DNA of 32,000 nucleotides from Candidatus Nitrosotenuis sp. (GTDB lineage: Archaea > Thermoproteota > Nitrososphaeria > Nitrososphaerales > Nitrosopumilaceae), in assembly GCA_049276655.1 (NCBI GenBank), contig JBASWV010000010.1, positions 61,757-93,756 of the forward strand. Direction: 5' to 3'. Shown piece by piece: positions 2,001 to 28,588 of this stretch. Below the pieces are notes generated by a model. It was not told the DNA's origin. It worked only from the letters and a program-made list of their open reading frames with translations, and searched no databases. The translations under genes were made by a program, and so were the position numbers. Positions within the stretch are counted from its first letter, which is position 1, and every line of letters begins with the position of its first letter.

Positions 2001-2127
2001 AAAATGCATAGCCCCCCGCTTGGGCACAAAAATCTGACACTTTTTAGTCATAACTAAAACAGGATTTGGATCGAGATGATCAATAATTACATAAGGTTAT
2101 CATCATACCGTTAATTCTATAAGACAA

Positions 2128-2496
2128 TTAAATTCCGCTCATCATAACTGATTTCAGTTTCAAAATTTCGGCAATTATGGCCGAATGATCCGCTTCGATT
2201 TCGGTTGTCATGTAAATTATGTGTTTATCATCAAGTGGTATTGTTATACGTTTTATCTTCTCATATTCTGCCAGTGCATATTTACCAGCACCTATAGAAC
2301 CGGAAAACTTTGTTCGTAGTTTCCATGCATCTATTGCATGTCTTATCGATTCGCGCTCTTCTGATGGTGTTAGATAGTTAGTTACTCCCTCACGCTGGCC
2401 TCCAAACATCAGTCTGCCTTCGATATCAATGATGGTAACAAATCTTATTTTGGAATCAAGATTCATTATGTTTTCGTAAATATTTTTGTAATCCAT
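2128..2496 (-). CDS. Small Roadblock/LC7-like protein, paralog A (function unknown)
   Basis: 122-aa ORF. The N-terminal pattern D-x-K-I-R-F-V-T-I-I-D-x-E-G-R-L resembles Roadblock/MglB-type folds. It is clearly paralogous to 3791-4156, sharing an identical AEYEKIKRITIPL block, and more distantly to 16719-17093. Confidence 0.7.
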   Translation of the reverse strand: MDYKNIYENIMNLDSKIRFVTIIDIEGRLMFGGQREGVTNYLTPSEERESIRHAIDAWKLRTKFSGSIGAGKYALAEYEKIKRITIPLDDKHIIYMTTEIEADHSAIIAEILKLKSVMMSGI

Positions 2497-2500
2497 ACCT

Positions 2501-2650
2501 TCACTCTCTGATTGGAATCAACTCACATTTGCATTTGTTTCGTTTACCACAATATGGGCATGTGCAGTTACAAAACAATAATGGAGTTTGACAGTCTGGA
2601 CATTTGGTGTAATCTGCAAAATCTTCCCCCATTTTCTGGACTCCACACAT
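2501..2650 (-). CDS. Cys-rich zinc-ribbon micro-protein (49 aa)
   Basis: Hand translation: MCGVQKMGEDFADYTKCPDCQTPLLFCNCTCPYCGKRNKCKCELIPIRE. It has 10 Cys, including CxxC pairs. Its stop lies 4 nt upstream of the start of 2128-2496 on the same strand, which suggests an operon. It is below the ORF-track size cutoff. Confidence 0.5.
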   Translation of the reverse strand: MCGVQKMGEDFADYTKCPDCQTPLLFCNCTCPYCGKRNKCKCELIPIRE

Positions 2651-2751
2651 TATCATTAATAAAGAAATTTAAGGTGATTTATTAGAAATTTAAATATTTG
2701 TTTACTTATTTCGCATTCTTATTTAAATATGATTGTAAATATTGGAAATTG
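2651..2751. promoter_or_regulatory. AT-rich divergent promoter region with TATA-like boxes
   Basis: About 100 nt of very AT-rich sequence lies between divergent ORFs. It contains several TTTAAAT/ATTTAAATAT-type elements suitable as archaeal TATA boxes. No transcription start site can be assigned from sequence alone. Confidence 0.35.
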
Positions 2752-2868
2752 ATGGAACAAGACGTATTCCGATGCGAATGCCCTCCTGGCGCTCCAACAT
2801 ATGAGGATGAGGAAGGTATGCTCATCTGTGTTTCATGTGGTGGTTGGGTTAACCCTCTGGCCACTTAG
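2752..2868 (+). CDS. Stand-alone TFIIB-type zinc-ribbon micro-ORF (38 aa)
   Basis: Hand translation: MEQDVFRCECPPGAPTYEDEEGMLICVSCGGWVNPLAT. The pattern CxC...E-E-G-M-L-I-C-x-x-C-G-x-x-V mirrors the ribbon of the downstream TFB (CISC...SGEIVCSNCGLV). It ends 18 nt before the TFB ATG. Confidence 0.4.
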   Translation: MEQDVFRCECPPGAPTYEDEEGMLICVSCGGWVNPLAT

Positions 2869-2886
2869 AGTAACATCTATTGCGAT

Positions 2887-3798
2887 ATGGTTTATGATGT
2901 ATTGAAAAAAAGTACGCGTGACTCTTACTGCATTTCATGTTCACCCGTTACGGATCTTGATAGTGGCGAAATCGTGTGTAGCAATTGTGGGCTGGTGATG
3001 GTTGAAAGACTAGAAAGTCAATATAGAGAATGGCGGCCATTTGATGATGATTATAGAAGATACAGAGTGGGCCAGCCCAGCTCATCAGCATTTTCCAACG
3101 CGAGACTTTTTACCAATATTGGAAATGAAAATTGGGACTTTTCAGGAAAACCATTCTCATTTATCACAAAAGGAACTATGAATCGCTTAAGACTGTTTGA
3201 TACTAGAAGCAAAAATCATACCTCATCGGATAGGAATTTTTATAAAATGTATTACGAATTTGAAAAACTAAAACATAAGCTCACTATTTCCGATTCTGTT
3301 ATAGAAAATGCTGTATATCTATTTAGGAAAGCCACAAATAAGAAGTTGACTCGTGGCCGAAATATGTTGCTGATAGCTGCTTCGTGTTTGTATGCTGCAT
3401 GCAGAGAAAGTGAGACACCAAGAACACTTTATGATATAGCCGACGCCATAAATGTAAAGAAAACTGATGTCAGTGCATACCTAAGATTGCTAATACATGA
3501 ATTAGAGTTGACATTGCCAACAGTGAATTTGTATCAATGCATTGTACGAGTTGCAAACAATATGGGTATTTCTGAAAAAATAAAACGCCACGCCCTTGAA
3601 ATAATCCAAAAAGCAGAGCAAATCAATATGACTGCGGGTAAAGAACCAATGGGGCTTGCCGCTGCCGCAATTTATTTGGCGGGAATGAATATGGGTGAGA
3701 ATTATTCCCAAAAAACATTATGTGAAATTTCAAAAATTACTAGTGTAACGCTCAGAAATAGAAGCAGGGAATTAAGACAAAAGATTCTGTTTAACTAA
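2887..3798 (+). CDS. tfb: Transcription initiation factor IIB (TFB) paralog
   Basis: 303 aa. It has an N-terminal Cx2C-x13-Cx2C zinc ribbon followed by two cyclin-like repeats (LIAASCLYAACRE... and MGLAAAAIYLAGM...), which is the typical TFB/TFIIB architecture. Confidence 0.93.
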   Translation: MVYDVLKKSTRDSYCISCSPVTDLDSGEIVCSNCGLVMVERLESQYREWRPFDDDYRRYRVGQPSSSAFSNARLFTNIGNENWDFSGKPFSFITKGTMNRLRLFDTRSKNHTSSDRNFYKMYYEFEKLKHKLTISDSVIENAVYLFRKATNKKLTRGRNMLLIAASCLYAACRESETPRTLYDIADAINVKKTDVSAYLRLLIHELELTLPTVNLYQCIVRVANNMGISEKIKRHALEIIQKAEQINMTAGKEPMGLAAAAIYLAGMNMGENYSQKTLCEISKITSVTLRNRSRELRQKILFN

Positions 3799-4156
3799 AT
3801 TTCTGAAGAAGATCTAGGACTTTGGAGATAATTAGGTTGTGATTCGCAGTAACCTCTGTAGAAATTAACAGTAATTCAGTTTGATTTAATGGGATCGTTA
3901 TACGTTTTATCTTTTCATATTCTGCCATAGAGTATTTTCCATGACCAATGAATGTTGCAAGCGTACTGCGATTTTCCCATCTCATAATGGTGTGTATTGC
4001 AGATTTTGTTAGCTCTTCTGGAGGTAATAATGGCTCTAAACCGTCACGCATTCCACCACATAATTTATGCCCGCTTTTATGGTAGATTGCGACGTATCTT
4101 ATTTTAGGATCAATTTCGAAAATCGTATCACATAGGTTTTCAGAATCAGAGATCAT
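3791..4156 (-). CDS. Small Roadblock/LC7-like protein, paralog B
   Basis: 121 aa with the same architecture as 2128-2496 (IRYVAIYHKSGHKL..., identical AEYEKIKRITIPL). It overlaps the TFB 3' end convergently by 8 nt. Confidence 0.7.
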   Translation of the reverse strand: MISDSENLCDTIFEIDPKIRYVAIYHKSGHKLCGGMRDGLEPLLPPEELTKSAIHTIMRWENRSTLATFIGHGKYSMAEYEKIKRITIPLNQTELLLISTEVTANHNLIISKVLDLLQKFS

Positions 4157-4452
4157 AGCACAAGTTTTTCTTTATTGATTACTTTACCTGTAATGTTGTC
4201 GATTTCCACGACCATGCTCAACGTATCAGTTTCTACAATGACAGTTGTTGTGTTGGTCTCATTCATTCTTACTATCGATGTAACTTCATAATGCTTGAGT
4301 TCGTCAATCTCTAATGCGTCTCTGACGATTCGTAGTGCATCATTATCATTTTGTACTTTTGTTTGCATTTTGGTTGATCTTAAAATCAGATATGCTATTA
4401 TGGTCACCATTATGTAATATCCAACCCAAACCGGAATTTCCGTAAAGTCCAT
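4153..4452 (-). CDS. Membrane-anchored small protein, PepSY-like ectodomain (tentative)
   Basis: 99 aa with an N-terminal TM helix (IPVWVGYYIMVTIIAYLIL). The C-terminal part ends in VEIDNITGKVI, reminiscent of PepSY. ATGA start/stop overlap with 3791-4156 suggests translational coupling. Confidence 0.55.
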   Translation of the reverse strand: MDFTEIPVWVGYYIMVTIIAYLILRSTKMQTKVQNDNDALRIVRDALEIDELKHYEVTSIVRMNETNTTTVIVETDTLSMVVEIDNITGKVINKEKLVL

Positions 4453-4589
4453 CGTTGTTTATACGTTGTAAACTTATTTAAGAGAAACAATTATTTTTAT
4501 TAAAATTCGTTTAATAATAACAAAATTACTTTATAAAAAATCAAACATACGACAAATTTACTTAATATATGATTAACGCGTAAGTAACT

Positions 4590-4826
4590 GTGATGCAAGA
4601 ATTTGATCTGTTAAATGAAAAGAAAGTAGAAAAATTGGCAAAAAACCAATCGGATGTAGAACGGATTTTACCAAGATTGACGACGTATGAGATTTCCTTA
4701 CTCATAGAGAAGATAGACACAATGATAATTTCTTCACATTCAAAGAAAACAACTCTGGATTTGATAATCTTGAAAGATATTGTATTGAGGGAAAGACACC
4801 TGAGAAAAACATTGGAGGTAAGCTAA
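4590..4826 (+). CDS. Hypothetical protein
   Basis: 78-aa ORF with GTG at 4590 and ATG at 4593. It is the first gene after an AT-rich divergent promoter region and sits 6 nt upstream of the next ORF. No recognisable motif. Confidence 0.45.
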   Translation: MMQEFDLLNEKKVEKLAKNQSDVERILPRLTTYEISLLIEKIDTMIISSHSKKTTLDLIILKDIVLRERHLRKTLEVS

Positions 4827-4832
4827 AATCTA

Positions 4833-5081
4833 ATGAAAACCGGTTCTTGTTTATTTTGTCTAAATCGTAAACGCATCAGTGCTGATAAAAAGCAATGGCT
4901 TATTCACTTATCATCGCATAGAGAGAACATGATAAAATATCTGGTTGAGCAGTACCCGAGTTGTGTGTTATGCGTAAACTCTGAACCATTTGTAAACAAA
5001 TTGAATTTTGAAAGACACGTTCGTTGGGGGCACGATAAAAGGGCCGTGATCGAATGGACCTTTCAGAACATGATAAAATAG
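4833..5081 (+). CDS. Small protein with two C2H2-like zinc-finger motifs
   Basis: 82 aa. The motifs are CLFC-x15-H-x3-H and CVLC-x14-H-x4-H. Its 3' end overlaps the endonuclease V reading frame. Confidence 0.55.
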   Translation: MKTGSCLFCLNRKRISADKKQWLIHLSSHRENMIKYLVEQYPSCVLCVNSEPFVNKLNFERHVRWGHDKRAVIEWTFQNMIK

Positions 5082-5740
5082 GCAATGATCCATTGGAAAT
5101 AACGCATTTTGCTCTTAAACCTGAACAAATGACTCAAGATCCTATGATGCTGCAAGAAAAACTTGCAAGTAGAATAATTACGACGGATTCCTTTGGTTCT
5201 ATAAAAAAAGTATGTGGCGTGGATGTTTCTTACAAAGATAATGTAGCGTCGACTTGCGCAGTAATAGTTGATAGAAAAACTCTACAAATGATAGAATCTG
5301 TAAACGCCAAAACTAAAGTAAACCAGCCGTACCAGCCAGGTCTTTTATTCTTAAGAGAAGCAGAACCAGCATTTTCTGCATTACACTTGTTACAAAATGA
5401 TTATGACCTTTTATTAGTGGATGGCAATGGTCAGCTTCATCCTAGAAAGTGTGGTCTTGCATGCCATCTTGGATTATCGCTAGACAAACCAACCATAGGC
5501 GTGGCCAAAAGCCTTCTCTGTGGTAAAATAAAGAATAACCGCGTCATACTCGATAGCAAAATAATGGGGGCAGTCATAAAAAACAGGAAAAATGTCTTTG
5601 TCAGCGTTGGCCACAAAATCGGTCTCCGAAGCGCAACAAAAATTGTGCAAGAATTAATAAAAAAAGATCAGTGGTTGCCAGAACCATTGCGGCTGGCAGA
5701 CCATTATTCAAAAACTTGGAAAAACAAGAATGTGGTGTGA
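5054..5740 (+). CDS. nfi: Endonuclease V (deoxyinosine 3' endonuclease)
   Basis: Carries the conserved blocks CGVDVSY, PYQPGLLFLREAEP, LLLVDGNGQLHPRKCGLACHLGL and PTIGVAKSLL. The start is uncertain: ATG at 5054 or ATG at 5129 (MTQDPMM...). Confidence 0.88.
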   Translation: MDLSEHDKIGNDPLEITHFALKPEQMTQDPMMLQEKLASRIITTDSFGSIKKVCGVDVSYKDNVASTCAVIVDRKTLQMIESVNAKTKVNQPYQPGLLFLREAEPAFSALHLLQNDYDLLLVDGNGQLHPRKCGLACHLGLSLDKPTIGVAKSLLCGKIKNNRVILDSKIMGAVIKNRKNVFVSVGHKIGLRSATKIVQELIKKDQWLPEPLRLADHYSKTWKNKNVV

Positions 5741-5799
5741 TAGTTAAAACATCTGATCTGTTGGAAAACGTTTAAGGTCATAACTGAAAATATGTCTCT

Positions 5800-6240
5800 G
5801 TGAACGTTTTCATTATTGCAATTATTGGAATTGCAATAACATCTGTGATTGTTTTTGGTATTTTCATGATCGGTGAAAACCCAACAATACAATTTCCAAA
5901 AGAACATTATGAAATCAAGATTATCGGACTAAAAGACAGCTATTTTGTTGGAGAGCCATATTCATTTTCTTATGTATTGTCGGGGTTTGGAACTCCATGC
6001 GGAAGTAAAATGATCACATTTCCAATAAACAAGACCCATGCTGGTATGGAAGGCTCAAGTGCTTCTTGTCTAAAATCATTCCCAACAAACTTTGTTTTGG
6101 ACGTCAAGGAAACTTATGGTACGACATATGGGCATATTGCATTGCAAGAGACTGGAAACTATACCGTAAGGATTCAATTTGAAAAAGGAGATAACGGCCC
6201 AACGGTCACGGAAAAAACTTTCATGGTAATTAATCCATGA
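5800..6240 (+). CDS. Membrane-anchored hypothetical protein
   Basis: 146 aa with a GTG start. It has an N-terminal TM helix (VFIIAIIGIAITSVIVFGIFMIG) followed by a beta-rich ectodomain. No known motif. Confidence 0.55.
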   Translation: MNVFIIAIIGIAITSVIVFGIFMIGENPTIQFPKEHYEIKIIGLKDSYFVGEPYSFSYVLSGFGTPCGSKMITFPINKTHAGMEGSSASCLKSFPTNFVLDVKETYGTTYGHIALQETGNYTVRIQFEKGDNGPTVTEKTFMVINP

Positions 6241-6277
6241 CACTTAGGTCATCAAAACCACTTTAGTGTAAAATTTC

Positions 6278-7009
6278 TCAAAGGCTACGGACGCCGTTCA
6301 TGTTGATGTTCTGTTTTACCATCCTCAATTTAATATCGGAAAATCCTTCTTCTTCGAACCATTCCCGAACTTCATGGGCTGAAAAACTCCAATTATATTT
6401 TGGATTAAATGCGTCAAACCAACCATGAATATCGCCACCAAGTTCCACAGCTTTTTTCCTACATAACTCGACTTTCTCATCAAATGATAGTTTTTCCCAA
6501 AAAGCATGTTTTTCCACACATGAGGGCCCTCTAAATCCATCATAAAATCGATCATTTTCTTTATTGTAAACCATAATGTGTAACATTCCGCCTTTTTTCA
6601 CCTGTGATGCCACTTTTGAAAATCCCATTCTAGTATCTTCTAGATGATGCAAAACTCCCCACGATAACACAAAATCGTATTCTTGTTTGGCTTCTAAATT
6701 CATTATATCATATACATATGCGTTAAGATTAACGGTTCTACATCTGTTAATTGCTTCCTCACTTATGTCAAAACTATCTACTCTGGCAGCCTTTAGCTGC
6801 TGCATGGCATACGTCCATCTACCTGGTCCACACCCGGCATCTAAGCAAATCCTACCTTTGATAAAAGAATCTCTTTCATACCATTTTTTAATGCCGGTTA
6901 ACTCCAGAAATTCTTCGACTCGTTTTCTATTGTATTCGTATTGGTTTTTGTTATAGGTCAGGTATTCCTTACCCATTACATTTTTCCATTGCTCATCAAA
7001 ATCGGCCAA
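6278..7009 (-). CDS. Class I SAM-dependent methyltransferase
   Basis: 243 aa. SAM-binding motif I is LDAGCGPGRW, the acidic post-I motif is VDSFDIS, and the downstream block is FVLSWGVLHHL. Confidence 0.85.
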   Translation of the reverse strand: MADFDEQWKNVMGKEYLTYNKNQYEYNRKRVEEFLELTGIKKWYERDSFIKGRICLDAGCGPGRWTYAMQQLKAARVDSFDISEEAINRCRTVNLNAYVYDIMNLEAKQEYDFVLSWGVLHHLEDTRMGFSKVASQVKKGGMLHIMVYNKENDRFYDGFRGPSCVEKHAFWEKLSFDEKVELCRKKAVELGGDIHGWFDAFNPKYNWSFSAHEVREWFEEEGFSDIKLRMVKQNINMNGVRSL

Positions 7010-7179
7010 TGATTGGTCGGTACTATGCCTTCTATAAATTACTTAATCATCACAAAATTCCAAATATCGAGCTTCGATGGTATGTACTCTAACCTACTTT
7101 TTTGGTTAAACCATCTGCAAAAATTTGGAAAACGAGTATACTCTACACTAACTGCTTGTCATGAGTCTCTGTTCACGCC

Positions 7180-7290
7180 CTATGGTGTGAACAGTGAGAC
7201 CGCAAAGCCTACTAGAAAGCCAATCACCGCTGCAGCCATGACAAACATTGCTATGGTGTCTGTCTTTCTGCGCCTTAACTGTATGCTCAT
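7180..7290 (-). CDS. Possible tail-anchored micro-protein (36 aa)
   Basis: Hand translation: MSIQLRRRKTDTIAMFVMAAAVIGFLVGFAVSLFTP, a basic N-terminus followed by one TM helix. Support comes only from the ORF and its hydrophobicity pattern. Confidence 0.25.
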   Translation of the reverse strand: MSIQLRRRKTDTIAMFVMAAAVIGFLVGFAVSLFTP

Positions 7291-7383
7291 ACTACAAGTA
7301 TGTTTTTTAAAAATATAATATTGATTTTCGTAATTCTAAAAATATTTTTAATACCAAATTTTGGCTAGTATACAAATTTTTAA

Positions 7384-7560
7384 TCAGCTATTTATTGCGA
7401 TTTCATTATGTTCAGTCGAGTCAGCAGGAATGCTTTGCACATTCTTAGTGTTCTCTCTATCAATCGATGCCTGCTGGACACTTTCACCAACAACAAAACC
7501 AAAAATTCCAAAGCCACCAAGTACTAAAATCCCAATTAACAAATAGATAATCTTTTTCAT
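7384..7560 (-). CDS. Small membrane-anchored or secreted protein
   Basis: The internal ATG at 7560 gives MKKIIYLLIGILVLGGFGIFGFVVG..., a signal or anchor-like N-terminus. The longer ORF extending to 7608 adds an implausible leader. Confidence 0.5.
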   Translation of the reverse strand: MKKIIYLLIGILVLGGFGIFGFVVGESVQQASIDRENTKNVQSIPADSTEHNEIAINS

Positions 7561-7705
7561 CGATCTGCCTGATGCGTACTGATATTTAATGCCTAACAAT
7601 ATTCTCAAAGATTAATCCAATCGTTATCTGACAGAGGCGCAATCCGATACAAAACCGCCATTTTCACTCGGAAAAAATAATATCGTCACAATAACAAATC
7701 AAACA

Positions 7706-9791: not shown

Positions 9792-12700
9792 ATGAAACGT
9801 ATTGCCCTGTCGGCGTTTTTCATAGCTTTTATTTTAGCATCTGTAAACTATGCAAGCGCGGCAACCATATCTGATCCACTGTCTGGCGTCACTGCGACTG
9901 CGGTTTCGCCTACCCAGGTAAACGTTTTTTGGTCGGCACCGCAAAACGACGGGGGCTCGCCAATCATAAACTACAAAATTGAATACAAAGTAGGCAGCGG
10001 CGCTTACACGGTTTTGGTGCAAAGTACCACCAATACATTTTATTCACATACAGGCCTTACGACAGGACAGTCATACTCTTACAAGGTATATGCGGTAAAC
10101 TCTATTGGCACAAGCGCGGCCTCATCCGAAGTTACTGCAACGCCTACATCGTCATCTGCTGGAACAAATCCTGGCATCCCAACTAATGTGGCCGCATACG
10201 CGACATCGCCTACCCAGATAAGCCTCTACTGGTCCGCCCCTGCAAACAACGGCGGTTACCAAATAACCGGATACCGAATCGACTACAAGGTCGGCTCAGG
10301 GACATACTCTACTTTGGTATCAAACACGCAGAGCACGACTATCAGCTACACCCACACAGGCCTGACGACAAACCAGTTCTATTTCTACCGCGTATATGCA
10401 ATCACACAATTTGGAACAAGCGAGCCGTCCGCCGAAGCATATGCGCAACCGCAATCAACATCTTCTCTTACGGTTCCTGGCGCCCCGACAAACCTTTCTG
10501 CGACTGCGACATCGCCTACCCAAATTAATCTCTCTTGGACTGCGCCATCAAACAACGGCGGTTCGCCTATCACTGGATACAAAATAGAATCCAAGTCCGG
10601 GACAGGCTCTTACACTACAATAGTCTCAAACACCGGCACCACATCAACCACATACTCACACGCCGGCCTTGTCACCGGCACCACATACACGTACAAAGTC
10701 TCCGCAATATCTTCTGCCGGAACAGGGGCAGCATCAAACGAGGCCTCTGCAACGCCGACATCTTCATCATCGCTTACCGTGCCTGGCGCACCGACAGGTC
10801 TTGTCGCAACACAGGCCTCGTCCACTCAGATAAGTCTCTCTTGGACTGCGCCATCAAACAACGGCGGTTCGCCTATCACTGGATACAAAATAGAGTACAA
10901 AATAGGCTCCGGCTCTTACACTACAATAGTCTCAAACACCGGCACCACATCAACCACATACTCACACACAGGACTGACGGCAGGCCAGGTCTACACGTAC
11001 CGCGTATCCGCAATAAACGCAATTGGAACCGGCTCTGCGTCGCCTGAGGCCACACCCGGCTCGTCATCGTCATCCAGTCCTCCTGGCGCCCCGACAGGCC
11101 TTACTGCTACTGCCGCATCGCCAACGCAGGTAAATCTCTCCTGGACCGCACCCTCTTCTGGAGGAGTTCCAACCGGCTATAAAATCGAGGCAAAAAAGGG
11201 CACTGGCGCATATGAGATAGTGGTTGCCAACACGCAAAGCACTGCGACCTCGTTTGCTCACACTGGTCTGACTACCGGCACCACCTACTACTATAGGGTC
11301 TCTGCGATAAACTCTGCCGGAACAAGCTCGCCAAGTGAGGCCTCTGCCACACCAAAGGAGACTACAAACCCGACGCTTACTGCGACCGCTGTATCCCCCA
11401 CATCGATTATGCTTTCATGGGTTCCGCCGTCGCAGACATACAAACAGTCCATCACCGGCTACAAAATTGAAGAGAAAGTAGCCCAAGACACATTCCAGAC
11501 TATAGTCGACAACACAAACTCTGCCGGAACGTCACATACCATCACAGGCCTTACCACAGGCCAGGCCCACACATATGTCGTTTCTGCATATTTCAGCTTG
11601 GGTGCCAGTCCAAGATCCAATGAGGCCTCTGCCACACCACTGACTACGTCGACGCCGCCCGCATCACAGCCGGCAATGACTGCCCCTGGCGCCCCGACAG
11701 GCCTTACTGCTACTGCCGCATCGCCAACGCAGGTAACCCTCTCCTGGTCTGCGCCATCAAGCACCGGCGGCTCTGCCATAACTGGATATAAAATCGAGGC
11801 CAAAAAAGGCACAGGCCCATACGAAACAGTAACGTCGAGCACGCAAAACTCTACTACAAAATACTCGCACACAAACCTTACCACTGATATAACCTACACA
11901 TATCGGATCTATGCGATAAACTCCGTCGGAATAAGCCAAGCATCGTCAGAGGCCTCGTCAACTCCAAAACTGTCTACGTCTCCGCCACCATCAACTGTAT
12001 CTCTGCCTGGCTCGCCGGCTCTTTCGGCCAATTTGGTCTCGCCAACGCAGATAAACCTCTCCTGGTCTGCGCCATCTACTGGCGGCACTCCGACAAGCTA
12101 CAAAATAGAGTACAAGGTAGGCGCGGGTCAATACCTGACACTTGCAAAAAGCACAACTGGCACAACATACTCGCATACCGGCCTGCTGGAAAACACATAC
12201 TCTTACAGGGTTTACGCGATAAACTCTGCCGGCACAGGCGCTCCATCAAACGAGGTGTCTCTGAAAACCGTACAAGACCAGCCAGAGCCGACGCCAAAAC
12301 CAGACGAGTCAAAATGCGGCCCAGGAACCGTCCTTAACTCACAAGGGGTATGCGTTCTTGCAGAATCCGAGCCGGAGCCAGAACCTGAACCGGAGCCAGA
12401 ACCAGAGCCGGAGCCGGCACCTGTGCAGACTGGTCCAAAAAAGACACACATTCCGGGATTTCCAGATCCGAACAAAGATCCTCAATACTATATCAACAGA
12501 TACAACTCTGAATCGGAATATCGCGCATGGTTTGACAGAAACTTTCCAGACCAGACAATCTACGAGATAGTCGGAGTGGCAGAGCCAGAGCCGCAGAAAA
12601 TAACCTGTGGCGAGGGAACCCGACTTGAGGGAGGCATCTGCGTACTAGATGAAACAAAGCAGCAGTTCGGAGGCTGCCTTGTGGCAACTGCCGCTTTTGG

Positions 12701-13040
12701 AACAGAGCTTGCGCCGCAGGTGCAGCAGCTCAGAGAGTTACGACAAAACACTCTGCTTGGAACAAGTTCCGGTACTGCGTTTATGGAAATGTTCAACGGA
12801 GTGTACTATTCGTTTTCGCCAACAATTGCAGATTGGGAAAGACAGAGTCCGGCATTCAAACAGGCAGTGAGAGCAACCATCACGCCGATGCTTTACACGC
12901 TTTCAATTCTTAATTATGTAGATATCGACTCTGAGCAGGAAATGCTCGGATATGGAATTGGAATAATCCTACTCAACTCGGGAATCTATCTTGGCATTCC
13001 GGCGGTATCTGTTTTGCTTATCCGAAAAGCCCTGAGATGA
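9792..13040 (+). CDS. Large secreted surface protein: signal peptide, 8 FN3 repeats, PE-rich linker, two Cys loops and a C-terminal Cys-initiated membrane-anchor module
   Basis: 1082 aa. The signal peptide is MKRIALSAFFIAFILASVNYASA. There are eight units of about 100 aa with the FN3 signature (SPTQ[IV]xLSW..P..(N)GGSPITGYKIEYK......Y.HTGLT.G..Y.YRV.A.N..G.). These are followed by (EP)7 and a C-terminal GGCLVATAAFGTELAPQVQ... module with a terminal TM helix. Confidence 0.9.
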   Translation: MKRIALSAFFIAFILASVNYASAATISDPLSGVTATAVSPTQVNVFWSAPQNDGGSPIINYKIEYKVGSGAYTVLVQSTTNTFYSHTGLTTGQSYSYKVYAVNSIGTSAASSEVTATPTSSSAGTNPGIPTNVAAYATSPTQISLYWSAPANNGGYQITGYRIDYKVGSGTYSTLVSNTQSTTISYTHTGLTTNQFYFYRVYAITQFGTSEPSAEAYAQPQSTSSLTVPGAPTNLSATATSPTQINLSWTAPSNNGGSPITGYKIESKSGTGSYTTIVSNTGTTSTTYSHAGLVTGTTYTYKVSAISSAGTGAASNEASATPTSSSSLTVPGAPTGLVATQASSTQISLSWTAPSNNGGSPITGYKIEYKIGSGSYTTIVSNTGTTSTTYSHTGLTAGQVYTYRVSAINAIGTGSASPEATPGSSSSSSPPGAPTGLTATAASPTQVNLSWTAPSSGGVPTGYKIEAKKGTGAYEIVVANTQSTATSFAHTGLTTGTTYYYRVSAINSAGTSSPSEASATPKETTNPTLTATAVSPTSIMLSWVPPSQTYKQSITGYKIEEKVAQDTFQTIVDNTNSAGTSHTITGLTTGQAHTYVVSAYFSLGASPRSNEASATPLTTSTPPASQPAMTAPGAPTGLTATAASPTQVTLSWSAPSSTGGSAITGYKIEAKKGTGPYETVTSSTQNSTTKYSHTNLTTDITYTYRIYAINSVGISQASSEASSTPKLSTSPPPSTVSLPGSPALSANLVSPTQINLSWSAPSTGGTPTSYKIEYKVGAGQYLTLAKSTTGTTYSHTGLLENTYSYRVYAINSAGTGAPSNEVSLKTVQDQPEPTPKPDESKCGPGTVLNSQGVCVLAESEPEPEPEPEPEPEPEPAPVQTGPKKTHIPGFPDPNKDPQYYINRYNSESEYRAWFDRNFPDQTIYEIVGVAEPEPQKITCGEGTRLEGGICVLDETKQQFGGCLVATAAFGTELAPQVQQLRELRQNTLLGTSSGTAFMEMFNGVYYSFSPTIADWERQSPAFKQAVRATITPMLYTLSILNYVDIDSEQEMLGYGIGIILLNSGIYLGIPAVSVLLIRKALR
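9861..12270 (+). repeat. Tandem array of 8 FN3-encoding units of about 300 bp, with homogenised tracts
   Basis: Exact nucleotide identities were read off the sequence. 10529-10588 equals 10835-10894 (60 nt) and 10605-10661 equals 10911-10967 (57 nt), both at a 306-nt offset. 11082-11133 equals 11685-11736 (52 nt) at a 603-nt offset. Confidence 0.85.
12369..12410 (+). repeat. (Glu-Pro)7 dipeptide repeat / GAR-CCN hexanucleotide microsatellite
   Basis: gagccggagccagaacctgaaccggagccagaaccagagccg encodes EPEPEPEPEPEPEP inside the FN3 protein. Confidence 0.9.
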
Positions 13041-16718: not shown

Positions 16719-17093
16719 TTGAACTCGCACAACTCGCTCCTTAAAATAGTGGAGCAGATAATCTGCATCGATTCCGGGATGAGGTTTGCGGCAATAATCG
16801 ATCTTCGAGGAAACATCCTAGAGTCAATAATGAAAAAGGGCAAGACCTCGCTAAAAACGCAAAAAGAAGAAGAGCACTTTTGCAAGCAAATCGCACAGCG
16901 CAGGAAAATGCGAAGGGAGTTCGACAAAAGCCTCGGCAAGGTAAGGTATGTCCATGTAGAGCGGGAAAAGGTGACCCAGATAGTAGTGTATCCAAAAAGA
17001 AAGACCGTCTACTTTACAGTAGAACCGGAAATGAGCATTACAAAGAAAATGTCCATAATAACTAGAGTCAAAAAGCTAACGGCACACCTTTAG
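16719..17093 (+). CDS. Small Roadblock/LC7-like protein, divergent paralog C
   Basis: 124 aa. The N-terminal I-D-S-G-M-R-F-A-A-I-I-D-L-R-G-N-I and the central GKVRYVHVEREKV align by eye with paralogs A and B (IRFVTIIDIEGRL / GKYALAEYEKIK). Confidence 0.55.
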   Translation: MNSHNSLLKIVEQIICIDSGMRFAAIIDLRGNILESIMKKGKTSLKTQKEEEHFCKQIAQRRKMRREFDKSLGKVRYVHVEREKVTQIVVYPKRKTVYFTVEPEMSITKKMSIITRVKKLTAHL

Positions 17094-17125: not shown

Positions 17126-17398
17126 ATGAAGATTCTAGTCGACGAAATGGATGACGGCTGGGACGAGAGGCTTCGTGCCCTCGGGTACGACGCATACTCT
17201 GTGAAAAAACTCATAGCCGAGGGCAAAAAACTGCACACGGATTATTCTATCATCAACTATGCAAAGGAAAATGGCATGGTCCTAATTACGCGTGACACGG
17301 AAAGCGGCCAGGCGTGCAAGGAAAACGACATCCCGTGCATCCTTTTGGATAATTCAGAGATATTCAACATAATCGTTGAGAAACTAAAGAGGATCTAG
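17126..17398 (+). CDS. PIN-like / Mut7-C-type small nuclease-fold protein (DUF5615-like)
   Basis: 90 aa. The pattern MKILVDE...LRALGYDA..V.........D..I..YA.ENGMVLITRD matches by eye the acidic-residue pattern of DUF5615/Mut7-C PIN-like domains. Confidence 0.55.
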   Translation: MKILVDEMDDGWDERLRALGYDAYSVKKLIAEGKKLHTDYSIINYAKENGMVLITRDTESGQACKENDIPCILLDNSEIFNIIVEKLKRI

Positions 17399-28342: not shown

Positions 28343-28588
28343 ATGGAAATTGCGTACGTGCTTGTAAAGTGTGAAGTAGCCCACGAAATGGATGTTATGC
28401 GCGAGATTCTAAAAATTGATGGGGTTAAGGAAGCCCACGGAACCTATGGCATGTACGATATTTTTGTCAAAGTGGTTGGGGCAACTCACAAGGAAGTGTC
28501 TGATATCATAACCAAACAAATCAGGAAAACGCAACACGTAGTTTCGACAACGACCCTTTCCATAATTCCAGAACAGGGCGGCAAGTAA
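28343..28588 (+). CDS. Stand-alone Lrp/AsnC-type ligand-binding (RAM) domain protein, no HTH
   Basis: 81 aa from the ATG at 28343: MEIAYVLVKCEVAHEMDVMREILKIDGVKEAHGTYGMYDIFVKVV...STTTLSII, the beta-alpha-beta-beta-alpha-beta RAM pattern. It starts 2 nt after the purF stop. Confidence 0.75.
   Translation: MEIAYVLVKCEVAHEMDVMREILKIDGVKEAHGTYGMYDIFVKVVGATHKEVSDIITKQIRKTQHVVSTTTLSIIPEQGGK

Follow-up and report, generated by a model that had tools for sequence, protein, structure and literature searches.

We analysed a 32,000-nucleotide stretch of DNA from Candidatus Nitrosotenuis sp. (contig JBASWV010000010.1 of assembly GCA_049276655.1, positions 61,757 to 93,756 of the forward strand; hereafter the window), in which a gene for an accessory transcription factor B (TFB), here called TFB-x, lies between two opposite-strand genes of the DUF6659 family, DUFa and DUFb, and next to several very small open reading frames (ORFs) (Table 1). 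A reading made from the sequence only had described this locus as a symmetrical regulatory cassette, in which a complete TFB gene is bracketed by two Roadblock-like paralogs, each accompanied by a tiny partner gene. All of the ORFs that it listed were found at the positions that it gave, and comparison of the two small opposite-strand proteins confirmed that DUFa and DUFb are paralogs (42% identity over 113 amino acids, E 4e-30).

The stop codons of TFB-x (3796-3798) and of DUFb (3791-3793, minus strand) form an 8-nt convergent overlap at 3791-3798, and TM99 and DUFb are joined by a common ATGA at 4153-4156; both features had been part of the earlier description and both were read directly from the sequence. 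The end of the Cys-rich ORF is separated from the start of DUFa by 4 nt. Codon-level comparisons with orthologs revealed purifying selection on each cassette gene for which an ortholog pair was compared, the micro-ORFs included (Zn38 lies outside this comparison), and these ORFs are therefore real genes. A stretch of 60 nt is 82% identical between DUFa (2236-2295) and DUFb (3890-3949) and encodes the invariant G.GKY..AEYEKIKRITIP motif, a similarity that reflects either strong constraint or gene conversion.

The TFB-x/DUFb gene pair

TFB-x matched PF00382 with 119.8 bits in two stretches, corresponding to two cyclin repeats, and its C-x2-C...C-x2-C ribbon was intact (Cys 15, 18, 31 and 34), so the earlier description of a complete TFB was upheld; the Zn_Ribbon_TF score was 23.2 bits, under the threshold of 29. 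A search of 5.8 billion proteins placed only nine other clusters in the rare TFB-x clade, at 58-72% identity, followed by a gap down to 49% or less, and a metagenome scan for closer orthologs yielded, among the matches listed, solely TFBs at 42-49% identity. An alignment of the B-linkers showed the canonical motif MHD.GL.T.I in seven other TFBs, whereas TFB-x of the window and the six orthologs aligned with it all have (S/G)N.RLFTNIG at this place, and the C-terminal helix of the clade reads ..TSVTIRNRS.. versus ..TEVTIRNRYK.. in other TFBs. The ratio of nonsynonymous to synonymous substitution rates (dN/dS) of TFB-x was 0.09-0.15, which indicates a functional protein. One relative, the metagenome contig L161, has a frameshifted TFB-x ortholog (6001-6847) that occupies two reading frames, lacks about 22 codons and was called as 246 amino acids; this is possibly a pseudogene or an assembly error, and the DUFb and TM99 genes adjoining it are intact.

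The genomes of ammonia oxidizers encode 4-11 TFBs each (PMC7554672), and their accessory TFBs are condition-specific regulators that are switched with lifestyle (PMC12448741, PMC7554672). TFB-x fits this expansion and condition-specific use (PMC7554672, PMC12448741, bioRxiv 10.64898/2026.09.06.749720) and resembles the accessory TFBs of Sulfolobus (TFB2/TFB3), Halobacterium (Tfbs) and the ammonia oxidizers in being a supernumerary and divergent TFB whose ribbon and cyclin repeats are intact. It differs from them in its very narrow clade, its clade-specific B-linker and its fixed Roadblock-fold neighbour; a Roadblock-fold partner was not described for any TFB in the literature searched.

Comparison of ten TFB-x contexts (the window, the related loci L001, L002, L003, L161, L162, L164 and L165, and two P0129 contigs) showed that a DUFb ortholog is convergent at the 3' end of TFB-x in all ten, with 77-84% identity where DNA was compared. 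The pairing of this TFB with a Roadblock-like gene thus recurs across genomes. The 8-nt overlap was identical in six contexts (the window, L001, L162, L165 and both P0129 contigs) and the overlap was longer in L002, L003 and L164. Synonymous sites were saturated among the cassette orthologs (dS from 0.8 to more than 2), and DUFb was the most constrained cassette gene, with a dN/dS of 0.04-0.05. The outer flanks vary, from EF2 and endonuclease V (EndoV) in the window to universal stress protein and leu genes in L001 and carbamoyl phosphate synthase and methyltransferase genes in L161, and inner rearrangements, namely the exchange of DUFa for a third paralog (DUFc) and the loss of TM99, surround a TFB-x/DUFb junction that persists. 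DUFb-type proteins (at least 77% identity) were found only beside TFB-x within the sample. Of the DUF6659 paralogs, then, only DUFb is strictly tied to TFB-x, and the conserved core of the cassette is TFB-x with a convergent, stop-overlapping DUFb, the latter usually co-translated with TM99. An accessory TFB and a Roadblock-like expansion in thaumarchaea were both already known; the new element is the fixed pair of a TFB gene and a Roadblock-fold gene.

The family of TM99 is tiny (five clusters), and six contexts (the window, L001, L161, L164 and the two P0129 contigs) retain an intact gene. Its AlphaFold2 model (predicted local distance difference test score, pLDDT, of 73) consists of a transmembrane helix at residues 5-25 followed by one helix and four strands. 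The N-terminal flank of the transmembrane helix is acidic (MDFTEIP) and the C-terminal flank is basic (RSTKMQTK), so the C-terminal domain is predicted by the positive-inside rule to be cytoplasmic. The sequence-only reading had called this protein PepSY-like, a label that is plausible on topology only: TM99 and two of its homologs had no Pfam match at E<=1, PepSY included, and no Foldseek match reached E<=0.001, the best one being weak (4exr, E 0.026, template modelling score 0.49) and the C-terminal domain of YpeB (5boi) ranking 13th.

Table 1. Features of the TFB-x locus in the window and, for the leader element, in related loci
Feature	Position	Strand	Description
DUFa	2128-2496	-	122 amino acids; DUF6659, Roadblock fold; divergent from TFB-x; second gene of the Cys-rich ORF/DUFa operon
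Cys-rich micro-protein ORF	2501-2656 (or 2501-2650)	-	likely true start 2632
Zn38	2753-2868	+	38-amino-acid zinc-ribbon-like ORF, C-x-C...C-x2-C
TFB-x	2887-3798	+	303 amino acids; complete, divergent accessory TFB/TFIIB paralog; zinc ribbon and two cyclin repeats
DUFb	3791-4156	-	121 amino acids; DUF6659, Roadblock fold; convergent with TFB-x
TM99	4153-4452	-	99 amino acids; small single-pass membrane protein; upstream of DUFb, ATGA-coupled
orf78	4593-4826	+	small conserved ORF, divergent from the TM99-DUFb operon
C2H2_82	4833-5081	+	82-amino-acid C2H2-zinc-finger-like protein
Low-GC island	2001-7700	.	whole cassette, EndoV, S-adenosylmethionine methyltransferase and small ORFs
Third DUF6659 paralog	16719-17093	+	13 kb from TFB-x; native GC
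Leader element	L001 8766-8849(-), L161 5905-5987, L162 1082-1176, L164 455-549, L165 1155-1247		upstream of TFB-x orthologs

Fold and family of the DUF6659 proteins

An AlphaFold2 model of DUFa, built on 37 sequences, had a pLDDT of 93.4 and a predicted template modelling score of 0.86. Its elements (helix 3-11, strands 17-24 and 29-34, helix 44-63, strands 74-77, 81-87 and 92-99, and helix 104-120) follow the order alpha-beta-beta-alpha-beta-beta-beta-alpha. The Roadblock/LC7 fold that had been proposed from the sequence is right, since all 50 of the best Foldseek matches in the PDB were Roadblock/LC7 proteins, with E values down to 3e-7 and template modelling scores of 0.52-0.75, most of them 0.64-0.75; they included Asgard and Streptomyces Roadblock proteins, MglB, MglC, LAMTOR/MP1-p14 and dynein LC7. 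The Robl_LC7 model (PF03259) did not match DUFa or DUFb at E<=1, nor any of the 37 aligned members at E<=0.1, and a search of PDB sequences with the DUF6659 profile returned only noise. The predicted relation to Roadblock is thus structural only, and known proteins of the same fold (9jue, 3kye, 7f8m, 1j3w, 3t12 and 1veu) show 8-16% sequence identity to the DUF6659 proteins.

DUFa and DUFb are members of Pfam DUF6659 (PF20364) by homology and lie at the edge of the model, with scores of 23.8 and 25.7 bits, respectively, both just under the gathering score of 27; the third copy of the window scored 40.7 bits (E 6e-12 with a local hidden Markov model), and 28 of the 37 aligned members matched the model. 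The closest homologs (E 1e-36 to 1e-72) carry PF20364 or the name 'DUF6659 family protein', and DUF6659 is the annotation of the 712 homologs with E<=1e-3, which come from Nitrosotenuis, Nitrosarchaeum and Nitrosopumilus. An exhaustive search with the profile yielded 995 clusters at 50% identity (E<=1e-3), and a scan of species-representative genomes gave 457 confirmed matches, for which all 80 loci kept were Nitrososphaeria-type records; in this sample, the family occurs almost only in ammonia-oxidizing archaea. DUF6659 was not mentioned in the literature searched, and neither its Roadblock fold nor a link to TFBs was recorded there.

A comparable domain already described is NitrOD3, of about 120 amino acids, which is defined by its fusion to REC in response regulators of Nitrososphaera (Galperin et al. 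2018, PMC5847659), was related by HHpred to Roadblock/LC7 (3KYE, probability 68%) and was noted by its authors for its 'expansion in Thaumarchaea' (PMC5847659). DUF6659 is likewise a Roadblock-related thaumarchaeal domain of about 120 amino acids, whereas no REC fusion was found in the 20 longer multi-domain proteins that were scanned out of the 150 best DUF6659 representatives. An identity of DUF6659 with NitrOD3 and its REC fusions was not established.

Pairs of full-length DUF6659 domains in tandem make up the C-terminal end of STAND proteins of the NLR-like type and of some shorter pentapeptide proteins (P0278, P0256, P0243, P0244, P0336, P0262, P0250, P0261 and P0246), among them the architectures TIR-NACHT-pentapeptide-2xDUF6659, trypsin-NACHT-pentapeptide-2xDUF6659 and DUF4062-...-2xDUF6659. 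A fusion was also found in a metagenome-assembled genome (MAG) of Nitrososphaeraceae (P0249). The tandem pair mimics a Roadblock dimer, which suggests a dimeric module for binding or sensing, and the most probable role of DUF6659 proteins is that of adaptors or sensors that work as dimers. Tandem pairs or triples of DUF6659 genes, present in 26 of 81 loci, point indirectly the same way.

In the Nitrosopumilus MAG locus L009 (3993-6137), a further paralog follows an Amt ammonium transporter gene on the same strand after 17 nt and adjoins a divergent PII gene. The third DUF6659 gene of the window is followed, after 32 nt, by a 90-amino-acid PIN-like/DUF5615/Mut7-C ORF (17126-17398), a different partner that is possibly toxin-like. 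Stand-alone Lrp/AsnC ligand-binding proteins of 81 amino acids occur with DUFc next to TFB-x in L001 (9421-9666) and L161 (5097-5342) and near the DUFa ortholog in L167 (4861-5106), and a 43% homolog is encoded in the window at about 28343-28585, 24 kb away. NitrOD1 resembles this type of ligand-binding domain (PMC5847659), and the stand-alone proteins of that type adjoin DUF6659 genes in L001, L161 and L167.

The upstream module, the small ORFs and the low-GC island

The divergent gene upstream of TFB-x is DUFa in the window and DUFc in L001, L161, L162, L164 and L165. Orthologs of DUFa at 84% and 76% identity occur in L166 and L167, with no TFB within the 11.5 kb examined. The Cys micro-protein was found upstream of DUFa orthologs in L001, L002, L003, L162, L165 and L166, and in L077 a homolog of it is divergent from a DUF6659 gene. 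The protein had been credited with 10 Cys; its 49-amino-acid form has 9, and 8 belong to the conserved core, C-x2-C-x6-C-x-C-x-C-x2-C-x5-C-x-C. Judging from the orthologs, whose first residues are MREDF, translation probably starts at 2632, which gives 43 amino acids and 8 Cys. The proportion of nonsynonymous differences (pN) was 0.105 against a synonymous one (pS) of 0.79, and the protein had no Pfam or PHROG match. As a universal partner of DUF6659 it was rejected, given that a Cys-rich ORF lies upstream of just 10 of 116 DUF6659 genes; four of these ten ORFs (in the window, L001, L002 and L003) are homologous to that of the window.

The Cys micro-protein and DUFa are thus an independent two-gene module that is also found without a TFB, and the symmetrical cassette of the earlier description does not stand as a unit, because DUFc replaces DUFa in relatives and DUFa with its Cys partner also occurs away from any TFB (L166, L167). 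The apparent symmetry arises because two separate modules are juxtaposed in the window; the Cys micro-protein/DUFa module would have moved to the divergent upstream position in the lineage of the window.

Zn38 ends 18 nt upstream of the TFB-x start and is probably co-transcribed with TFB-x, since a TATA-like TATTTAAATA precedes its ATG by about 25-33 nt. It had no Pfam match, and a 61% homolog (E 1e-8) adjoins the DUFa ortholog in L167. The position of Zn38 is taken in relatives by a conserved non-coding element of 83-95 nt (GGGTAGCA...GATTGCTGCCC), directly upstream of the TFB-x orthologs, for which RNAalifold predicted a closing stem of 13-16 bp and two hairpins (-30.8 kcal/mol). One hairpin holds an insert of variable length that is itself a hairpin, and double changes were seen at only 2 pairs. 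A covariance model of the element matched the five loci of Table 1 only (811 kb searched) and did not match the window; the locus and its relatives had no Rfam match to a known RNA family.

On the other side, orf78 accompanies the cassette in L001, L002, L003, L161, L162, L164 and L165, with a dN/dS of about 0.4 and no family match. C2H2_82 is 79-83% identical in L001 and L161, where it also lies beside the cassette (pN 0.09-0.11, pS 0.8-0.9), and its sole Pfam match was a weak one to C2H2 (E 0.013). Its gene overlaps the start of the EndoV gene (5054-5740) by 28 nt, and an exact 16-nt direct repeat, AGAACATGATAAAATA, is found at 4924 and 5065.

The cassette lies in a low-GC island. Genes from 2128 to 7318 had a GC content at third codon positions of 0.30-0.42, versus 0.38-0.64 (mostly 0.49 or more) for the other genes of the window, with sharp edges near 2000, just behind the EF2 stop codon, and at about 7650-7700. 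No tRNA and no flanking or direct repeat was found at the borders. The composition of the island resembles that of the Nitrosotenuis contig L001, in which the cassette has the composition of its genome, and this suggests that the island was transferred from a low-GC donor like L001. Outside the island, in the highest-GC part of the window, a protein of 1082 amino acids with eight fibronectin type III repeats (9792-13040) may be of a surface or adhesin type.

Possible coupling of TFB-x and DUFb, and its alternatives

We interpret the locus as a cassette with an accessory TFB, specific to its lineage, in an ammonia-oxidizing archaeon of the Nitrosopumilaceae type. DUFb would be a dedicated partner or regulator of TFB-x, a reading to which we give a probability of about 40%. 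A dimer containing DUFb, alone or paired with DUFa or DUFc, would bind TFB-x and set its availability for pre-initiation complexes, and TM99, where present, would tether the complex to the membrane via its predicted cytoplasmic C-terminal domain. Such a logic would be akin to that of a sigma/anti-sigma pair rather than to that of a GTPase switch. By analogy with bacterial extracytoplasmic function (ECF) sigma factors and their membrane anti-sigma factors, an alternative initiation factor stands here beside a small partner that is co-translated with a single-pass membrane protein. Unlike the ECF pairs, with which there is no homology, the genes here converge instead of sharing a transcript, and 4 of the 10 loci lack the membrane protein. 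The co-translation of DUFb with a membrane anchor also loosely recalls the membrane-tethered Ragulator. A narrower version of this reading, built on the sigma/anti-sigma analogy, in which the Roadblock dimer of DUFb, tethered by TM99 where present, would act as an anti-TFB factor that sequesters a specialised TFB and releases it on a signal, seems to us rather unlikely.

The main rival to DUFb as a partner or regulator is co-inheritance without coupling, which we regard as a serious possibility: TFB-x would have arisen in, or been transferred within, a variable island with many small lineage-specific genes; DUF6659 genes are abundant enough in these genomes for adjacency to come about easily, and it would have been kept by descent in a young clade. 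Several results weigh on this side and against a dedicated partnership. The DUF6659 family is multi-copy and scattered, with 116 genes in 81 loci, 26 of which hold two or three copies, and three genes in the window itself, the third of them 13 kb off. Its neighbours are mostly unrelated (glyoxalase, short-chain dehydrogenase/reductase, SufC, aldehyde dehydrogenase, histidine kinase and Amt; further ones are TRAM, peroxiredoxin, TPR and stand-alone AsnC-ligand domain proteins and, once, an ammonium transporter with PII). Among the 51 loci whose flanks both reached at least 2 kb, only 7 had a TFB within 2 kb, cases that collapse to about three arrangement types, and a set of 80 loci built around other TFBs (42-49% identical to TFB-x) contained no adjacent DUF6659 gene, six of the loci having one 1.5-5 kb away. 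A general TFB-DUF6659 partnership was rejected on these counts (44 of the 51 loci without a TFB within 2 kb, 0 of 80 with an adjacent DUF6659). Chance proximity is estimated at a few percent, given 4-11 TFBs per genome, and together with shared ancestry this makes the enrichment of TFBs near DUF6659 marginal. The two other proximities were inconsistently conserved: in L009, a DUFa ortholog is followed by a TFB that has 60-68% orthologs in six loci without a DUF6659 neighbour, so that it does not count as independent support, and the L011-type arrangement, in which an orphan TFB and a tandem DUF6659 pair are about 1.5 kb apart, is weak, the TFB being present in five loci and absent in four with the same pair. 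Co-inheritance is also favoured by the low-GC island and by the occurrence of DUFa and the Cys ORF without a TFB. Moreover, TFB-x and DUFb are convergent and do not form an operon, which is weaker evidence of functional coupling; TM99 is decayed and dispensable in 4 of the 10 loci (only an N-terminal remnant in L002, L003, L162 and L165); the narrowness of the TFB-x clade, with limited time for rearrangement, may partly explain the conserved adjacency; and DUFb orthologs were sampled via DUFa-ranked and TFB-x-ranked searches only, so that a DUFb without TFB-x could escape. Against co-inheritance, all ten contexts are kept, six with the identical overlap, despite saturated dS, changed flanks and rearranged neighbours, the most constrained cassette gene is DUFb, and its type is confined to TFB-x loci in the sample. 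The sequence-only reading had said that membership of the paralogs in a large family scattered randomly with respect to TFB genes would count against it; this applies in part, in that the family is large, multi-copy and mostly unlinked to TFBs, whereas the TFB-x/DUFb pair is fixed. Coupling might also act at the RNA level, where transcriptional interference or a duplex would give reciprocal expression of the two genes, with protein-level coupling also possible. The genes converge and overlap, so their transcript 3' ends must overlap; intergenic space for terminators is absent, the stop-to-stop overlap is kept at 8 nt in six contexts and is longer in three, and the structured leader upstream of TFB-x in relatives suggests control of this kind. 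Compact archaeal genomes, however, often contain short convergent overlaps, which may be without regulatory effect, and RNA-level coupling leaves unexplained why the convergent DUF6659 paralog is always the same one; we judge it improbable.

Similarly low is the probability that we assign to a mobile element or defence island, that is, a low-GC remnant of an integrated element or defence locus with its own TFB and small zinc-finger proteins. The sharp compositional island, the many small Zn-binding ORFs, the match of the TFB to phrog_20431 (E 1e-46) and the DUF6659 domains in TIR/NACHT proteins would agree with it, whereas no integrase, tRNA or flanking repeats were found, the island includes a housekeeping-type EndoV, and the L001 cassette does not differ in composition from its genome. 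A viral or defence origin found little support in the database searches: DUF6659 was absent from IMG/VR viral contigs, only the TFB among the cassette proteins tested matched PHROGs, and the DUF6659 paralogs and TM99 had no PADLOC match. Very improbable, finally, is a classical MglB-type function, in which DUF6659 proteins would be regulators of a distant Ras-like GTPase, resembling GTPase-activating proteins or guanine nucleotide exchange factors, and their position beside the TFB would be irrelevant. Small GTPases are the targets or partners of the closest structures (MglB, archaeal Roadblock and LAMTOR proteins), the Roadblock superfamily has been linked to NTPase regulation (Koonin and Aravind 2000, via PMC4316618), and DUF6659 is fused to STAND NTPases. 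On the other side, the absence of a GTPase partner, noted earlier from the sequence, was borne out: among the larger ORFs of the window, Pfam scans identified no Ras-like GTPase and EF2 (9-2000) as the only GTPase, and an approximate P-loop/NKxD motif screen of all ORFs in the 81 loci with their 116 DUF6659 genes found only an SRP54/FtsY-like protein, 8.3 kb off. An MglB-like GTPase regulator found no support in these scans. At the sequence level, DUF6659 matched neither Robl_LC7 nor any solved Roadblock protein, and a 2014 survey places MglA/Rup GTPases in Euryarchaeota, Crenarchaeota and one korarchaeote, with Thaumarchaeota unmentioned (PMC4316618). DUF6659 therefore differs from MglB, LAMTOR2/3 (MP1/p14) and Streptomyces CvnB in that the neighbourhoods examined contained no small GTPase partner and the neighbour of DUFb is a general transcription factor.

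If co-inheritance is all that links the two genes, the result is still a useful annotation, though an ordinary one. Ammonia-oxidizing archaea may largely lack DNA-binding response-regulator outputs. The TFB-x/DUFb pair is a concrete candidate for post-translational control of an archaeal basal transcription factor; if DUFb were an anti-TFB factor, archaea would have in it a first counterpart of sigma/anti-sigma control, and it would also be the first Roadblock-fold protein that regulates a general transcription factor rather than an NTPase. For the uncharacterised DUF6659 family, a fold is now assigned, and its deployment both as free small proteins and as a C-terminal module of NLR-like NTPases indicates a general role as an adaptor or sensor. 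If DUFb were such an anti-TFB factor, the expansion of DUF6659 would represent signal adaptors that replace DNA-binding response-regulator outputs in ammonia-oxidizing archaea.

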